Below are positions 2,483 through 37,575 of a stretch of 41,468 nucleotides of DNA, one piece after another. Source of the DNA: Malassezia furfur. Its lineage: Eukaryota. The DNA lies in assembly GCA_052055015.1 (NCBI GenBank), contig JBQJIT010000047.1, one strand, 5' to 3'. The position numbers and the translations under genes are program-made. The notes under the pieces are model-generated. The model was not told the origin of the DNA. It searched no databases and saw only the letters and a list, made by a program, of their open reading frames with translations. Position 1 is the stretch's first letter, and every line of letters begins with the position of its first letter.

Positions 2483-4058
2483 CTACCAAGACACGCCCAG
2501 TGCGGCATAGGCGGCCCATACCAGCGCAACGCCGGCGACACATACGTGCATACGCGCGGCGCCTGCGCGCGCCTGCGCGTCCGACGGCGCCAGGTGCAGG
2601 CCGCTGGGCACTTGCTCCACCACGGGCGTCGGCAGCGTCGCAGACTGCGCGTCAGTGTCCAGCAGCTGCTCGGCACTCGACGCGACTGCCGTGGTCAATA
2701 ACGCGTCAGTTTTTGAGTGCGTCGCGATGCTCGTGAGCGGCGTGCGTGTGACGCCCTGCGTGGGCAACTGCGCAAAGCCCACGAGCGGCGGGTTGTAGCT
2801 AAACACGCTGTACACCGTTTTGAGGAACGAGTCGCCCATCACCCATGCAGGTGACGAGGACGACAGATGATCCGCGACAAATACGGCGCCGACACACCGG
2901 CTGCTGTCCGATGAGAGGCTGCCGAGGTTCAGCGTGTCGTTCGTTAGCACCCACGGGCGCTGGTTGAAGACGAGCGTCATGTTGAACTGCACGTCGCACG
3001 GAAAGGTATAATACTGCGCCAAGTCGCCCGAGCCTTGCTCTGCACCAGGCACCGAGTCGTACACCTGGGCGACCAACGCTGCAGGGCCGCCCAGCAACGT
3101 TGTGCCCGTATCGATCGAGGCCGAAGACTGGTTCCCCAGCTCGATCGGCTGACCATTTACCTTGAGTGCATCCATGTCGATGCCCCAGAACCCATTGCCA
3201 TGGGGGCCAAAAGTGTCCAGCACCGCGGACCAGCTGATCTCGCCGCGGAACTGGGTGCGATCAATTTTCCCCAGCGTCCATGTCCCGCCCGGCAGAATGT
3301 CGGTCTGGTTTTGGATGCTGTCGAGGTTGTTTGCGAGTTGGAAGGAAAAGACGGCGTCCTGCATCTTGCCAGTGGATGCCAATACCTCCCAGAATGGCAT
3401 GGTGCGCGACGTACTCAGTGTCTGGAAGCCCAGGCCCATGACGCCCGCCGCGGGCGGCGTCAGCGTGCGATCGCCTAGCCGGTTCGCTCGCGCAAAGGTC
3501 AAGTTCGCGACCTTGTACCCAGCGACTTGCACATCATCGGATACGAGTGTGCCGTCCACCTCGCCCACACCGTACTTGAGGTTGATCGTTGTGGAGCTCA
3601 CACGACTCGTGTTGCTGGCACTCGCATTGTAGCGCTGCAGATCTGAATCACATCCATCCGCGACGAGACACTGTGCATCTGCGAGCCAGAAGTCGGACGA
3701 GCCCGTATCGAGCACGACGTTGTATTCCTGCGCTGGCGTGCCAATGGCCAACCCGGCAAAATAGAAGCTGCGTGAGTGCATATGCATACCTGTCTGGGCC
3801 GTAATCGGCCAGGGAGGCCGTCTGACGCTCTTCATGCACATGCTCTTGTGCAGGTGCGTACCGCTCTCTCACACGCGTGGCCTCACGCCGAGCCCACGCA
3901 ACGAGCGCTTCGCCCTGCAGGCCATTGCGTGGATGCAAAGATCGACGATTGAGCCAGAGGGAGAGCGTCGTGTGGTTCTTGTCGGATACGGGTGTACCCT
4001 GCGCCATGACCAGCGCTAGCAGCGGCGCAAAGTACCACACCCATCCCCCAAGATGCAT
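2483..4058 (-). CDS. Secreted, probably GPI-anchored pepsin-family aspartyl protease, copy 1 (intron 3768-3789, 22 nt)
   Basis: Signal peptide and propeptide in ORF 3648..4058 join ORF 2483..3841 through GTATGC...CTCACGCAG; spliced length 518 codons. DTGS and DTGT catalytic motifs; hydrophobic C-terminus. Confidence 0.9.
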
Positions 4059-4279
4059 GGTACGAGCTGACAGTCGAGATCCCTCACGGATTCAGGGGTA
4101 TCCGATCCGCTCGGGGGTGCCGCCTCCGCGCGCAGTTACCTCCACCACCGATGTTTTGATTGGGTCCACCTGCATATTGTGGAGATGAGTGTTTATGCCA
4201 GGCGTCGGCGACCGTGCGCGGAGACAAAGGCCCCGGGCGGTGCTCGCACGCAACTACGAACAATGCACAAGTCAACGTC

Positions 4280-5941
4280 TTACAAAACAAAGGCGGCGGT
4301 CACCGTCGCAATGACCGCCGAGTACAGCACCAAATAGACACTGTAGGGCACCTGTACACCGTTGTCCTGGTTGCCGCCCAACCCGTAGGAGCGGAGCGAC
4401 GCGAGTGACTGGAAACCGGTCGGCACGCTTACGAGCGACGGTGTGGGCAGGCCGTTCCCGCCCAGCAAGCCCGTCTGTCGCGAGTGCACGGACGAGCTCG
4501 AAGTGAGCAGCGCACTGCTCGTGACACTGCCACCTCCCGCGAGCGACGTCGAGGCATCCGAGAAAGTCTCGCCCGACGTGATCGACGTCATCGGTAACGT
4601 CGACGCACCACCGGACGGCAGCGATGCAAAACCAACACGCTCTGGATTCCAACTGTACACGGAAAACACGGTGCGCAAAAACGTGTCGCCCAGAATCCAC
4701 GCAGGCATCGCCGAGTTCTGCGACTGCGGCGCGTCAAAGAGCGAGCTGATGCACATGTTGCTCCGGCTCGACAGGCGGCCCAGGTTCAGGTTTTCGTTGT
4801 CAAGCGTGAACTCTTTGCCGCCAAACGTCATCTTCAGCGTAAAGGGTTGCGTGCAGGGGTACATATAGTACCCCGAGCCGCCAAGCAGGTACGACGGCGC
4901 GGAGCGGACGCCGGGGATCTGGCTGTAGATCTGACGCAGGATGGACTGGGGGCCACCGATCAGCGTCGTGCCTGTGTCCACTGCGACGATGTTCTGCTGG
5001 TCGAGCTCGATTGTCTCGCCGTTCGCAACGAGTTTGTCCATGGTGATCGCCCAGTAGCCAATTCCCTGAGACCCGTACCCTTCAGTCAGGTCGACCCATG
5101 CAATGTCTCCTGTGTACTGCCGGTCGTCCAACACACCCAACGAAAACACACCACCAGGCACCACCTTGCTGGCCGAATCGCTCGAATCGGCCGACGCCAG
5201 CTGGAAGGAGAAGACGGGGTCCTTGACCTTGCCCTGGAGCGCGACCACCTCCCAGAACGGCGTACTCTCGCTCGAGGAAAGCGACTCAAAGCCCATGCCC
5301 ATCAGGCCGGACGCCGGCGGCTGGATGGTGCTTCCAGTCAACTGGCTCACGCGTCCAAATGTCAAACCATCCACCTGGTATTCGGCCATCGTCACGTCGT
5401 CGGCGCCCAACTTGCCAGACACCGTATTGGTGCCGTCGCCATAGGGCGTCAAAAAGGTGCGGTCGCTGCTGTTGAACGTCGAGCTTTTGGACGGGTCGTA
5501 AAGCGTCATCGACTCCGAGCAGCCCGTCAACTCCGAGCAGGACGCGTCGGCGATCCAAAAGTCGGACGATCCCGTGTCCATCAGCACATTCACGGTTGTC
5601 GACGGCGTGCCGATGCCGATCGGCATAAAGTAGAAGCTGTTCTGGCCATAGTTGCCGATGCCGACCAGCTGACGCGCGTGCTTCTTCGCATTCTTGTGCT
5701 TCCGCGTGCTGTTGTACTTGGCATTGAGAGCGTTGCGCTCGCGGTCCATCCACTGCACAAATGCATCACCTTCCAGGTTGCCGTTGCGCGGGTGGAGCGC
5801 CTCGCTGTTGCTGCGGATCGGCACCTGAATTCCGGTGCCCTCTGCACGATGTGCGCTCGGCGTGGGCGTCGGCTCCGCATTGGCAAACTGGCAAAGCAGC
5901 ACGGCCGCGCAAACGGCGCGTCCTACAAGTCCCGTCAGCAT
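4280..5941 (-). CDS. Secreted, probably GPI-anchored aspartyl protease, copy 2
   Basis: ATG at 5941 (MLTGLVGRAVCAAVLL), DTGSSD and DTGTT motifs, Ser/Thr-rich stalk, hydrophobic tail. Confidence 0.92.
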   Translation of the reverse strand: MLTGLVGRAVCAAVLLCQFANAEPTPTPSAHRAEGTGIQVPIRSNSEALHPRNGNLEGDAFVQWMDRERNALNAKYNSTRKHKNAKKHARQLVGIGNYGQNSFYFMPIGIGTPSTTVNVLMDTGSSDFWIADASCSELTGCSESMTLYDPSKSSTFNSSDRTFLTPYGDGTNTVSGKLGADDVTMAEYQVDGLTFGRVSQLTGSTIQPPASGLMGMGFESLSSSESTPFWEVVALQGKVKDPVFSFQLASADSSDSASKVVPGGVFSLGVLDDRQYTGDIAWVDLTEGYGSQGIGYWAITMDKLVANGETIELDQQNIVAVDTGTTLIGGPQSILRQIYSQIPGVRSAPSYLLGGSGYYMYPCTQPFTLKMTFGGKEFTLDNENLNLGRLSSRSNMCISSLFDAPQSQNSAMPAWILGDTFLRTVFSVYSWNPERVGFASLPSGGASTLPMTSITSGETFSDASTSLAGGGSVTSSALLTSSSSVHSRQTGLLGGNGLPTPSLVSVPTGFQSLASLRSYGLGGNQDNGVQVPYSVYLVLYSAVIATVTAAFVL

Positions 5942-12744: not shown

Positions 12745-13191
12745 ATGGCGCCGACGAGCCAGCGGAGCAGCATGGCGCCCATGTCGCGCGCGCGCATGTC
12801 GGTCGCGCCCGGCGCCGCTGCAAATGCGCGCCTGGCCGCAAAACAAGCAGAGCTGCATGCGCTGCAGAATCTACGGAACGAATCTGCGCGGCTCGCACAG
12901 GAGATGGCCCAGCTGGGCGACCGCGTGGACACGCTCGTCGCTGGTGGCATCTGTACGTGTTTGCGCTTACACAGCCGTGTCTTCCGTCATGTCGAGCTGG
13001 CAAGGCGTATTCCGAGCGATCCAGATTGCACAGGGTACGTGTTTCTATTTTTTTTAGCTCACGCAGCAACCACTGCCGCGTCGCGCGAGGCCGAGTCAAC
13101 CGCGACAAACGGCGCGCCCGCTGATAGCGTACGGCAGGTGCCCGAGGCGCTTGTGCGCATCCCAATTCAGACGTCCGAGTCTACGCCATAA
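12745..13191 (+). CDS. DAD2: DASH/Dam1 complex subunit Dad2 (introns 12953-12974 and 13035-13066)
   Basis: Spliced product: ARLAAKQAELHALQNLRNESARLAQEM...SVMSSWQGVFRAI...VPEALVRIPI; 131 codons. Confidence 0.85.
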   Translation: MAPTSQRSSMAPMSRARMSVAPGAAANARLAAKQAELHALQNLRNESARLAQEMAQLGDRVDTLVAGGICTCLRLHSRVFRHVELARRIPSDPDCTGYVFLFFLAHAATTAASREAESTATNGAPADSVRQVPEALVRIPIQTSESTP

Positions 13192-34626: not shown

Positions 34627-36240
34627 CTACCCACCCGGCACTTCGGTGCGCTGCACACCGCGTGCGCGCTCGGGCTCCTTTTCGCCCACGAGGCCGTCGT
34701 ACCAGTCACGCGACAGGCCGGCCTGGGCGCGGTCGCCCTCGTTGAAGGGCCCCTTGAGCTTCCCGACAAAGTTGCGGCGCACCTCCTCGCGGAACACGGC
34801 AACCGGGTCGCGCGGAGGGTCGTGCGTCGCGCACAGGTACGTTAGCCACCGGTGACCTGCCGAGACGTGCGTAATTTCGTCGAGGTGGATCACGTTGAGC
34901 GCCGCGACGGAGCGTTCGTCGCCTGCGGCCGCAAACTTGCGGATGGTCACCGGGTTCACGTCGAGGCCGCGTGCCTCGTGCACGAGGTGGATGATGGCTG
35001 CGTCAGAAAGGCACGTACATAGGCGTGCGCTCAGACTTTCCGACGTCTCCACCGCCGACTCCCACAGGCCGTGGTGCACGGGCAGAGCGCCAAAGTAGCT
35101 ACCCATCTCCATGAGCCGCCGCTGCAGGAGCGTAAAGTGCTTGGCTTCGTCGAGCGCAACCTTAAGAAAGTCGGAGTAGAACTGCGTCGGAAGCGTCGGT
35201 TTCGGCGTCGGCTGCGCGTCCGTGCGCGCCGCCGTCGCACTGAGCCGCGGCGCACGGGCGAGGATGCTGCGTGAGCGGCGCACGTACTCCCAGGCCAGGT
35301 CGATCGCCCACTGCTCAATGTTGGCGAGCGCGTGCAGCAGCGCAATGCGGCTGCGCTCCGTGCCGCCCTTGCCGCGCTTGCCCTCGGCGCCCGGCGCGAC
35401 GCGGCGCTCGCTGGGGAGGCGCGGCGGCCATGCGGGCGGCGTCTCGCTCTCGGACGTCGTCCACACGCCGTCCGCTCCCCAGCGTCCGCCGCCGATCGTA
35501 CGACACTGCCCGTTCCGGAAGGCCTCGGCCGCGTACTGTGTGTAGGCGACCTTGGCGAGCGGCTCGGCGGTCGACAGCACCAGCGCTGCCCATGCACACA
35601 GCGTGCGCGGCGCAGGGTCGGGGCGCGGCACGGCCGCCCAGTCAAACGACGGCGCGGGCGCCTCTGCATCGCTCGGGGGCGCGTGCGGGGGGTCGCGCGG
35701 GATCTGTGCAAACGCTGCGTGAGCCGAGTCGGCGCACCTTCCGAGACGGCGCGCACCTCGACGACCTCCCACGGCGCCTCGGGGTCCGTGTGCGGCGTCT
35801 CAACCCACACGTCGCCGTCGCGTGTCGTGACTGCATACACACACGACGACAGGCCCGTCGATGACTCGCCCGTGCTCAGCTGGAAATCGTATTGCTGTGT
35901 GAGTTGGCCGGGGGAGACGCACATGCCACCTGCGTCAGTGCAGCGACATACGGGCTGCGTCAGCTGCGCCACGTACCACACCACTACCGTATCCTCCAGA
36001 TCGCCCGCGTCGCCCCGCTCCTCGAGCGCGGCGTGCTCGAGCGGCGCGCCGAGGTGGGGGCACGCGGCCTCCATGCAATAATAGGCCGCGTCTTCGGCAC
36101 CCTGGAACGAGAACAACACCGACTTAGCACACACACGTACACACCGAGTGGTAGGCATTCGTCTGCGTGTTGCGCAGCGTAATGTGATGGCGCGCGGCGC
36201 CGTCCAGCGCCGCGCGCGCCCCGACGCGCACCTGCGGCAT
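34627..36240 (-). CDS. Rieske [2Fe-2S]-DUF455 (ferritin-like di-iron) fusion protein, 7 introns (about 36119-36140, 35955-35976, 35930-35951, 35895-35922, 35715-35737, 35267-35287, 34998-35018)
   Basis: CPHLG and spliced CPWH Rieske motifs; HALANIEQWAIDLAWD, DEAKHF, HEARGLD and DEITHV in the DUF455 part; spliced length 485 codons. Confidence 0.85.
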
Positions 36241-36296
36241 AGGGGCGGCGAAAGAGGGCCACGTGGCTTCAGCGCGTCGCGCAGAACCACGACGAC

Positions 36297-36593
36297 ATGT
36301 TGGGCCGTTTGGTGCGCTATGGCGCAGACGCAATGATGGTGTCTACCATCCTTGCCGGAATCAAGCATGCCTCGGGTCTCTCGCTGGACGTGGAGCGGAT
36401 TAGCGAGCCGAACCTGCGTGGCTTCATGCGGCAGTACCTCAACGCCGGCGACTACCTGTTCAATGCCGGTGTGTCGTTCGCCCAGCACAGCAACTACTTC
36501 CGCGCCACGGGCACCCCAGGCCACATCTCGCTGTTTGGCGAGGACGGCCTGCACATTCGTCAATACCCCGGGCCGTCTGAGAGCAAGTGGTAA
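36297..36593 (+). CDS. Small fungal protein, DUF1748-like
   Basis: MLGRLVRYGADAMMVSTILAGIKHASGL...YLNAGDYLF...SNYFR pattern. Confidence 0.7.
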   Translation: MLGRLVRYGADAMMVSTILAGIKHASGLSLDVERISEPNLRGFMRQYLNAGDYLFNAGVSFAQHSNYFRATGTPGHISLFGEDGLHIRQYPGPSESKW

Positions 36594-36834
36594 GGCGGCC
36601 ACACACGCAGCCACCCAGCATCCGGTCGGCCGCGCGAGCACGCCCGTCGCGTATGCCCAAGCGTATGGCGCATAGCGTGTACTCGCTCGGCTTGCTACGC
36701 ATACATCCACGGATTTGAGTAGACGCTGTTGCCATACATCCTCTCGGCACCGCCGCCGCTCTCCGGCGCCGCGCCGCGCGTGCGGCTGGCGGCGGTTCGG
36801 CCACGTACCTCCACCCGCGAATTTCGCCCAATTC

Positions 36835-37575
36835 ATGCTGCCGCCGGGGTCGGTGCCGCTGGCGCACCCACGCGTGGGCGACGCACGCATACTCGTGCTG
36901 CCGCACCCGCACTCGGGCGTGCCAAGCTATTTCGCGCTGAGCGACACGGACGCACGCCTATACGAGGTGCTCGTCGTGCGCCCGGACGCGCCGCACGCGC
37001 GCAGTTGGTTCGTGGGCCATGGCGATGGCACGGCGCGCCCGGACGCGCCCGGCGCGGTGGTGCGCGACGGCGCATTGCGCGTCCTCTCGCCCATCGATCC
37101 AATATTTGTGCTGCTGGGCCTGCTGGCTGACGTAGATGCGCGGCATTTCCGTCCGCTCGACGACCTGGCCGAGTCGGCCGCGGAGCTGCACGCGCGCCGC
37201 CGCGCTGCGTCGGTGCCGGACGGCGGCGAGGCGCGGCCATGGCCGGACATTGCACCGTTTATGATGCACTCAGCGATGGCAGCGCACCTGCCACGCCTAT
37301 GCGACACGCAGTCCGAGGCGGCGGCGGACGCGGGGTGCGTGTACCGACTCAGCTGGGACAAAATCGGCGCCGAGCTGGACGCCAAGCGCGCACGGCTCGC
37401 GCAGTCGGCCGTGTGCGACGCAGCGCCCGAGACGCTCGGGCGTCAGGTGCGCAAGGCGCTGACCAACGCACACACTGCGACCGACGCCGAGGTGGCCGCC
37501 GCGCAGGCCGAGGCGGCGCGCGCCATGGTGCTGGCATACTGCCCGCCATCGGTGGCCGCACACTGGGGGGCCTAG
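36835..37575 (+). CDS. RNH202: Ribonuclease H2 subunit B (Rnh202/Ydr279)
   Basis: ILVLPHPHSG, RSWFV, DGALRVLSPIDPIFVLL, FRPLDD, YRLS motifs; ATG 36835. Confidence 0.8.
   Translation: MLPPGSVPLAHPRVGDARILVLPHPHSGVPSYFALSDTDARLYEVLVVRPDAPHARSWFVGHGDGTARPDAPGAVVRDGALRVLSPIDPIFVLLGLLADVDARHFRPLDDLAESAAELHARRRAASVPDGGEARPWPDIAPFMMHSAMAAHLPRLCDTQSEAAADAGCVYRLSWDKIGAELDAKRARLAQSAVCDAAPETLGRQVRKALTNAHTATDAEVAAAQAEAARAMVLAYCPPSVAAHWGA

Follow-up and report, generated by a model that had tools for sequence, protein, structure and literature searches.

A Rieske ligand motif of Malassezia furfur is probably assembled from tandem 3- and 7-nucleotide micro-exons between ultra-short introns

We analyzed a stretch of 41,468 nucleotides (nt) of Malassezia furfur DNA (NCBI GenBank assembly GCA_052055015.1, contig JBQJIT010000047.1), referred to below as the window. 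On its minus strand, from 36240 to 34627, the window carries a gene whose predicted product has a Rieske domain at its N terminus fused to a DUF455 domain. A Rieske domain of this kind is predicted to bind a [2Fe-2S] cluster through two Cys and two His residues, which are held in two ligand boxes. Box 1 (CPHLG) is uninterrupted at 36062-36048 on the minus strand, and box 2 (Cys-x-x-His) is present only once three introns are removed, being in no contiguous frame at the locus. Comparison with related sequences makes it highly probable that the Cys-Pro-Trp-His of box 2 is interrupted by three ultra-short spliceosomal introns and that the mature mRNA encodes VVVCPWHQYDF. We infer that the gene is an ordinary, functional Malassezia gene in which a Rieske [2Fe-2S] domain is fused to DUF455.

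The minus strand at the end of exon 2 reads ...GTGGTGTG, followed by the donor of intron 1, and after the acceptor of intron 3 it continues CAATACGAT / CAATACGATTTC. Between these points, three complete intron units and the exons CCC and GTGGCAT are packed into 82 nt (35976-35895), so that 3 nt separate the acceptor of intron 1 from the donor of intron 2 and 7 nt separate the acceptor of intron 2 from the donor of intron 3. The spliced junction is TG + CCC + GTGGCAT + CAA..., which translates to VVVCPWHQYDF. A preliminary description of this DNA had read the minus strand here as three GT-AG units of 22, 22, and 28 nt enclosing these two exons, a reading that is correct to the base. It had also stated that no open reading frame (ORF) in any of the six frames holds the motif; in agreement with this, the six-frame translation of the window contained 12 matches to CPWH, C.WH, or CP.H, none of them in or near the Rieske gene, and the sole CPWH among them is unrelated (position 1851, minus strand). 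The unspliced frame across the site is open for 120 residues without a stop. The parts of the site are as follows, with loci from relatives numbered L and homologous proteins numbered P.

35977..36122, minus strand: exon 2, with the box 1 Cys-Pro-His at 36062-36054; it ends in TG, the first two bases of the box 2 Cys codon.
35955..35976, minus strand: intron 1, 22 nt, GTACGT...CTGAC..CAG, with the branch A at position 17 and 5 nt to the end; same position in L009 and L001.
35952..35954, minus strand: micro-exon 1, CCC, completing the Cys codon and starting the Pro codon with two bases; identical CCC in L009, and Pro at this spot in P0122 and P0123.
35930..35951, minus strand: intron 2, 22 nt, GTATGT...CTGAC..CAG; L009 (69 nt) and L012/L013 (24 nt) also have an intron at this position.
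35923..35929, minus strand: micro-exon 2, GTGGCAT, completing the Pro codon and encoding Trp and the ligand His; GTGGCAT in L012/L013, CTGGCAT in L009, and 'GGM' in P0122 and P0123.
35895..35922, minus strand: intron 3, 28 nt, GTGCGT...CTCAC..CAG; same position in L009, L012/L013, and L001.
35738..35894, minus strand: exon 5, QYDFQLSTGESSTGL...EVVEVRAVSE, the remainder of the Rieske domain.

Comparative DNA is the strongest line of evidence for the proposed splice model. A scan of metagenome contigs gave 85 pattern matches and 19 confirmed loci, four of which were informative (L001, L009, L012, and L013); when contigs of bacterial and archaeal genomes were searched for stray fungal ones, one stretch matched a pattern and no locus was confirmed. 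Loci L012 and L013 (72% G+C, approximately 80% identical at the protein level to M. nana P0029) read TGCCC, 24 nt, GTGGCAT, 23 nt, CAATAC: the absence of intron 1 is exact, and introns 2 and 3 are kept together with the 7-nt exon. Locus L009 (52% G+C, best named match M. nana, 99.6% identical to the ORF P0027) reads TG, 98 nt, CCC, 69 nt, CTGGCAT, 50 nt, CAATAT, with the same codon phases and with each intron beginning GTATGT. In L001, whose best match is Tilletiaria P0032, the order is TG, 70 nt, CCCTTGGCAT, 65 nt, GAATAC; a 10-nt exon here lies between introns 1 and 3, with no intron 2. The intron positions of the window, which the preliminary description had proposed comparing with those of other basidiomycetes, thus recur in L009, L012/L013, and L001, and both position and sequence of the micro-exons are kept between splice sites in these orthologues (3 and 7 nt in L009, 7 nt in L012/L013, and 10 nt in L001). 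Blind enumeration of splice products at the relatives ranked the CPWH model first at each: best of 9 products at L012, of 10 at L001, and of 1203 at L009.

Protein strings point the same way. The calls P0122 and P0123, contiguous ORFs from another Malassezia-like organism, read ...VVVWYVHRLTQPVRARAHAGGMYVAFLTQQYDF, a string that decodes to TG + 22 nt + CCN + 22 nt + GTGGCAT + 22 nt, as deduced from the protein. Protein P0033, which shares 77% identity with the L009 product, reads VVVCPWHQYDF; as its source otherwise supplies contiguous-ORF calls, this suggests that its species has lost all three introns exactly. Where introns are absent so exactly that TGCCC, or the motif as a whole, reads without a break, the outcome is the one expected of reverse-transcript-mediated intron loss; such absences can thus stand in, at the evolutionary level, for cDNA evidence.

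These architectures suggest a history for the site. Because introns 1 and 3 bound a 10-nt exon in the Tilletiaria-like relative, both would predate Malassezia; intron 2 would then have split that exon into 3 and 7 nt within the Malassezia lineage, and single introns may afterwards have been lost exactly in some species. An origin of intron 2 and intron 1 from one another by tandem duplication was considered and rejected: 16 of the 22 positions agree, but 15 of these are splice signals, and the L009 counterparts differ in length (98 versus 69 nt). At two agaricomycete-like loci, L002 (approximately 1895-1960) and L015 (approximately 3125-3200), CPWH is contiguous at the DNA level, and an intron lies 2 nt downstream of the Malassezia intron 3 position, in phase 2 as against phase 0 at Malassezia intron 3. 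This offset could reflect intron sliding or an independent gain. The translations of L003, L004, L006 to L008, L010, L011, L014, and L016 to L019 resemble L002 and L015.

We next consider the homologous proteins, for which a search returned 1079 proteins at an E value of ≤0.001 among 8000 scored candidates, the best 120 of the 1079 being listed. Among the matches listed, the closest relative of the DUF455 part is a protein of M. furfur CBS 9595 (92% identity over 93% of the query), followed by proteins of M. psittaci, Malassezia sp. CBS 17886, and M. nana and then by those of Ustilaginomycotina, other basidiomycetes, and remoter eukaryotes; most listed relatives have an N-terminal Rieske domain fused to DUF455. 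The preliminary description had expected CPWH in aligned homologues at this exact place, and CPWH was found as box 2 in 74 of the 80 homologues that have box 1 (out of 124 collected), with a V/I-rich strand before it and xYDF after it (as in DLVVVCPWHQYDF of Malassezia sp. CBS 17886 and MVVVCPWHEYDF of smuts). The other six sequences with box 1 are the window read-through, the gene models P0004 (M. furfur), P0029 (M. nana), and P0031 (Violaceomyces palustris), and the contiguous-ORF calls P0122 and P0123. Homologue searches with the read-through Rieske region (3 of 7 candidates near its length, 3 of 244 longer) turned up no spliced M. furfur product. The exons flanking the box 2 introns are highly conserved. 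Between the window and P0124, a protein 93% identical, the middle of intron 3 differs while the flanking exon residues are nearly unchanged; splice signals and micro-exon letters are kept, and intron interiors vary.

To rank splice models at the site, we built a scoring profile from 72 non-Malassezia Rieske regions, with all 13 Malassezia-like rows excluded, and enumerated every GT..AG interval of at least 10 nt from 35995 to 35880 in sets of up to three non-overlapping intervals. From 30 candidate intervals came 197 combinations, which encode 52 different products that are in frame and free of stops. The three-intron model ranked first of the 52 (128.6 bits, versus 116.8 bits for the runner-up), so that VVVCPWHQYDF, the spliced product given in the preliminary description, is both the best-scoring product and the one whose motif matches the homologues. 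The product that skips CCC (VVVWWH) ranked fourth (111.7 bits), and the read-through ranked 34th (92.8 bits). In all four loci enumerated (the window, L012, L001, and L009), the model that restores CPWH was the best GT..AG model.

Public annotations of the gene show what happens when these introns and exons are mishandled. The NCBI protein P0004 of M. furfur CBS 9595 reads VVVWWH, corresponding to a model with a 47-nt and a 28-nt intron in which CCC is skipped. In the M. nana model P0029, intron 1 and CCC are retained and GTGGCAT is skipped. Protein P0031 of Violaceomyces palustris reads ...DIEDFVEYDF and is without VVCPWH, a gap in this JGI/NCBI annotation that is probably the same missed micro-exon, with a length of 10 nt as in L001. 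Against the gathering cutoff of 20.3 bits for the Pfam Rieske domain (PF00355), scores fell short for P0004 (13.7 bits), P0031 (14.4 bits), the window read-through (16.9 bits), P0029 (17.5 bits), and P0122 (18.1 bits); the CPWH-bearing orthologues P0006 and P0030 scored 30.5 and 36.2 bits. In the read-through, the Pfam alignment placed residues 4 to 27 on profile positions 33 to 56. Automated annotation does, then, treat the domain as defective, as the preliminary description predicted: the read-through scores below the cutoff, and so do the public models for M. furfur and M. nana.

Orthologue P0030, taken as a substitute for the spliced product, was compared with two Rieske-type proteins: 3d89, a solved mouse protein with a Rieske domain, and CarAc (1vck, the carbazole dioxygenase ferredoxin). 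The alignment with each covered both ligand boxes, box 2 of P0030 falling on VCPWH of 3d89 and on CPFH of CarAc. As in those two proteins, box 1 is CxH, box 2 is CPWH or CPFH, and a turn of the ..TGE type follows; unlike the soluble 3d89 and CarAc, the fungal protein is fused to a C-terminal DUF455 of unknown function. The read-through protein searched against PDB gave one spurious match only (E value = 7.1).

The introns of box 2 are typical of this genome. The pattern GTRNGT..CTNAY..YAG, at a length of up to 30 nt, occurs 18 times in the window, far more than chance would give (1.9 ± 1.3, maximum 6, in 50 dinucleotide-preserving shuffles), and three of the 18 fall within the 82 nt of the Rieske site. 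The acceptor is CAG in all 18 and the donor is GTACGT in 11; the distance from the branch A to the intron end is exactly 5 nt in 13 of these motifs, and in 13 the A occupies position 16 to 18. Introns 1 and 2, with the branch A at position 17 and 5 nt to the end, have the modal geometry of the window, and all three box 2 units fit the Malassezia-type intron (GTRYGT donor, CTNAC branch motif approximately 5 nt before the end, CAG, and a length of approximately 21 to 30 nt). Besides the Rieske site, no listed tiny intron motif (21 to 30 nt, both strands) lies within 15 nt of another; one pair, at 12953-12974 and 13035-13066, is 60 nt apart.

How such a site would be spliced can be outlined from its signals. 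Each of introns 1 to 3 has its own GTRYGT donor, CTSAC branch motif (with the A 5 nt before the end), and CAG acceptor, and each may be recognized singly by intron definition, aided by a tight length optimum near 21 to 23 nt. Because adjacent acceptor and donor lie only 3 or 7 nt apart, the three introns would be removed successively and not at once, an argument that draws on the general size of the spliceosome. The sequence fixes no order of removal, since the remaining sites stay intact whichever intron goes first; splicing that is 'ordered,' as the preliminary description had it, is plausible. Skipping of CCC is the sole exon-skipping error that stays in frame, and it turns the Cys into Trp; the frame is shifted when GTGGCAT, or the pair of micro-exons, is left out. 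In recursive splicing of Drosophila, exons have zero length and no exon letters are left. The Malassezia site resembles that system in that an acceptor is followed almost immediately by a donor and stepwise removal would be required, and it differs in that 3 and 7 coding letters remain.

Several points weigh against assembly of box 2 from two micro-exons. Splicing here is deduced from comparison and not from transcripts or peptides; the architecture of P0122, P0123, and M. nana is deduced from protein strings and not from DNA; and the Rieske score of the spliced product (128.6 bits) comes from a profile built on orthologues and not from Pfam. In addition, if the P0004 model is based on RNA-seq, its VVVWWH could reflect a real isoform rather than an aligner failing on 3 nt. 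The main mRNA would then join donor 1 to acceptor 2 (a 47-nt intron, 35976-35930) and also lose intron 3, giving VVVWWHQYDF without the third ligand. P0004 carries exactly this string, the product is in frame and ranks fourth of the 52, and an intron of 47 nt is within the size range seen in the window. Yet such skipping replaces an invariant ligand Cys at a cost of 17 bits, does not account for the full acceptor and full GTATGT donor that border CCC in the window as well as in L009 (with introns of 98 and 69 nt), and is at odds with L012/L013, which encode TGCCC contiguously. Moreover, standard RNA-seq junction filters cannot place a 3-nt exon; the pipeline used for M. sympodialis, as described in PMC5389616, needed at least 20 bp of aligned exon on each side of a junction. 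We consider it quite improbable that the main mRNA skips CCC.

The preliminary description had further proposed that keeping all three introns (72 nt) would give a 'Rieske-dead' isoform, one without the cluster, and could act as a switch; such regulated retention could coexist with normal splicing. Retention is indeed in frame and stop-free, and the frame is also open in the species of P0122 and P0123 (66 nt in total). The switch itself is unlikely. In this window of 65.4% G+C, a stop-free run of 24 codons is found at 72% of positions over all frames and strands, and a length divisible by 3 has a 1-in-3 chance; nor is frame preservation conserved: the intron lengths add up to 47 nt in L012/L013 and to 217 nt in L009, where reading on from the donor soon meets a stop. 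Two further introns of this gene, both 21 nt long, likewise keep the frame and contain no stop, which indicates a general property of short GC-rich introns and not a special design. Decay of the Rieske domain in Malassezia, with the apparent introns as debris and only DUF455 of importance, would fit the finding that Pfam reports no significant Rieske domain in the read-through or in the public models P0004, P0029, and P0031. This account is hardly credible given the high conservation of the flanking exons, the retention of splice signals and micro-exon letters while intron interiors vary (P0124 versus the window), and the restoration of CPWH by the best GT..AG model in four of four loci.

The three-intron model of box 2 fits into a complete model of the gene with 8 exons and 484 amino acids and no internal stop. 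Its remaining parts, in the order of transcription, are as follows.

36145..36240, minus strand: exon 1, with the ATG at 36240-36238 and the product MPQVRVGA...RHHITLRN...AYHS; taken from the ORF list, N terminus matching P0030 and P0006, 3' boundary uncertain.
36123..36144, minus strand: first intron of the gene, 22 nt, GTGTGT...AAG, uncertain, with an odd acceptor and no well-placed branch site.
35715..35737, minus strand: intron 4, 23 nt; removal joins VSE to AFAQ (orthologues, VSEAFAQ and VSEAFSA).
35288..35714, minus strand: exon 6, the linker and the start of DUF455.
35267..35287, minus strand: intron 5, 21 nt, in frame and stop-free; removal gives DLAWDI (orthologues, DLAWDIIARAP).
35019..35266, minus strand: exon 7, DUF455.
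34998..35018, minus strand: intron 6, 21 nt, in frame and stop-free; removal between ARLS and IIHLVHEARG gives ARLSIIHLVHEARG, and orthologues read ARLSIIHLVHEARG exactly.
34627..34997, minus strand: last exon, the C terminus of DUF455 (...EVPGG), with the stop at 34629-34627.

The 484-residue product aligned end to end with P0030 (residues 1 to 484 with residues 1 to 455), and its residues 2 to 464 aligned with P0006. DUF455 (PF04305) was found above its cutoff (281.8 bits, E value = 6.3 × 10−84) over profile positions 2 to 247 of 247. Removal of introns 4, 5, and 6 (23, 21, and 21 nt) is independently required by the orthologues; P0004 and the contiguous-ORF calls P0002 and P0003 retain both 21-nt introns as 7 extra residues each. 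In L009, the DUF455 part (3332-4483) aligned as one unbroken block, which means that the three introns of the DUF455 half of the window gene are absent there; the CPWH introns of L009 are kept and long. For the first intron, removal of 36123-36144 was the sole GT..AG removal found by hand that keeps the conserved SVLFSF strand in frame. A canonical-looking 43-nt alternative (36144-36102) would remove that strand. At this spot, L009 has an ordinary intron and L013 has none, and the (GT)n run at the first intron of the gene could conceal an assembly slip.

Two neighboring ORFs lie on the plus strand. A Mitofissin-family ORF (PF08520, 82.6 bits) at 36243-36593 is arranged head to head with the Rieske-DUF455 gene, and as its first Met is at approximately 36297, approximately 56 nt from the Rieske-DUF455 ATG (36240), the divergent promoter region is extremely compact. 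The next ORF, at 36676-37572, resembles Ydr279 / RNase H2 subunit B (PF17745, 42.9 bits; PF09468, 22.9 bits, the latter below its cutoff).

Published work sets the site in context. In the basidiomycete Coprinopsis cinerea, 89 gene models have exons of ≤3 nt, including 27 exons of 3 nt (PMC12230235). As there, the Malassezia gene has an internal coding exon of 1 to 3 nt that ordinary annotation misses, and the omission damages the gene model; unlike the Coprinopsis exons, which were found by long-read cDNA sequencing, the Malassezia micro-exons are deduced by comparison only (PMC12230235). The Malassezia site further differs from that case in having two micro-exons in tandem, flanking introns of 22 to 28 nt instead of introns of ordinary length, and metal ligands among what is encoded. 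Plants have conserved micro-exons of ≤15 nt that are needed for gene function and absent from reference annotations (PMC8831610), in a setting that differs from the Malassezia site by long introns and an RNA-seq-based pipeline. Fungal micro-exons are described as little studied (PMC11121469).

Within Malassezia, introns of the manually curated M. sympodialis gene set average 30 bp, and RNA-seq supports 99% of them (PMC5389616, Table 2), and a review notes 'very short introns' in the genus (PMC7426719). The box 2 introns, which share the modal length and branch geometry of the window, are like those of M. sympodialis and belong to this genus-wide type (PMC5389616; PMC7426719). The passages on M. 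sympodialis annotation cited here make no mention of exons of a few bases, and the ≥20-bp filter would exclude such exons (PMC5389616). Our literature searches found no published description of Malassezia micro-exons, the sole co-mention being the name of a TopHat option, and no paper naming both DUF455 and Rieske. Among the matches listed, none of the DUF455 papers was judged functional by title or abstract, and nothing Malassezia-specific appeared on introns, branch point, or spliceosome. Micro-exons of ≤3 nt and Malassezia introns of approximately 30 nt are thus already published; what is particular here, and well supported by the sequence comparison, is the occurrence of two tandem micro-exons that lie within a metal-ligand motif, are flanked by introns close to the lower size limit, and are conserved in species whose intron lengths differ greatly.

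A broader proposal is that the 82-nt module may be a natural near-minimal splicing substrate with an obligatory stepwise path, that the CCC-skip error may be used or tolerated to make a cluster-less Rieske-DUF455 protein, and that tandem micro-exons may be systematically absent from all Malassezia annotations; taken together, we regard this as speculative and rather doubtful. A first consequence of assembling box 2 from micro-exons would be a correction of gene models. The public M. furfur and M. nana proteins are without a cluster ligand and contain retained introns, and the Rieske call is lost in consequence, so that a genus-wide catalogue of iron-sulfur (Fe-S) or oxygenase proteins would miss the Rieske domain. 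Standard pipelines fail where ultra-short introns meet micro-exons, which makes a case for homology-aware or long-read re-annotation of Malassezia. Furthermore, the site offers a compact, evolutionarily validated test piece for splicing, the same architecture being found with 22-nt introns and with introns of 50 to 98 nt in related species. Questions that it may help to answer are how 3- and 7-nt exons come to be recognized in the absence of exon definition and in which sequence neighboring minimal introns are spliced out.

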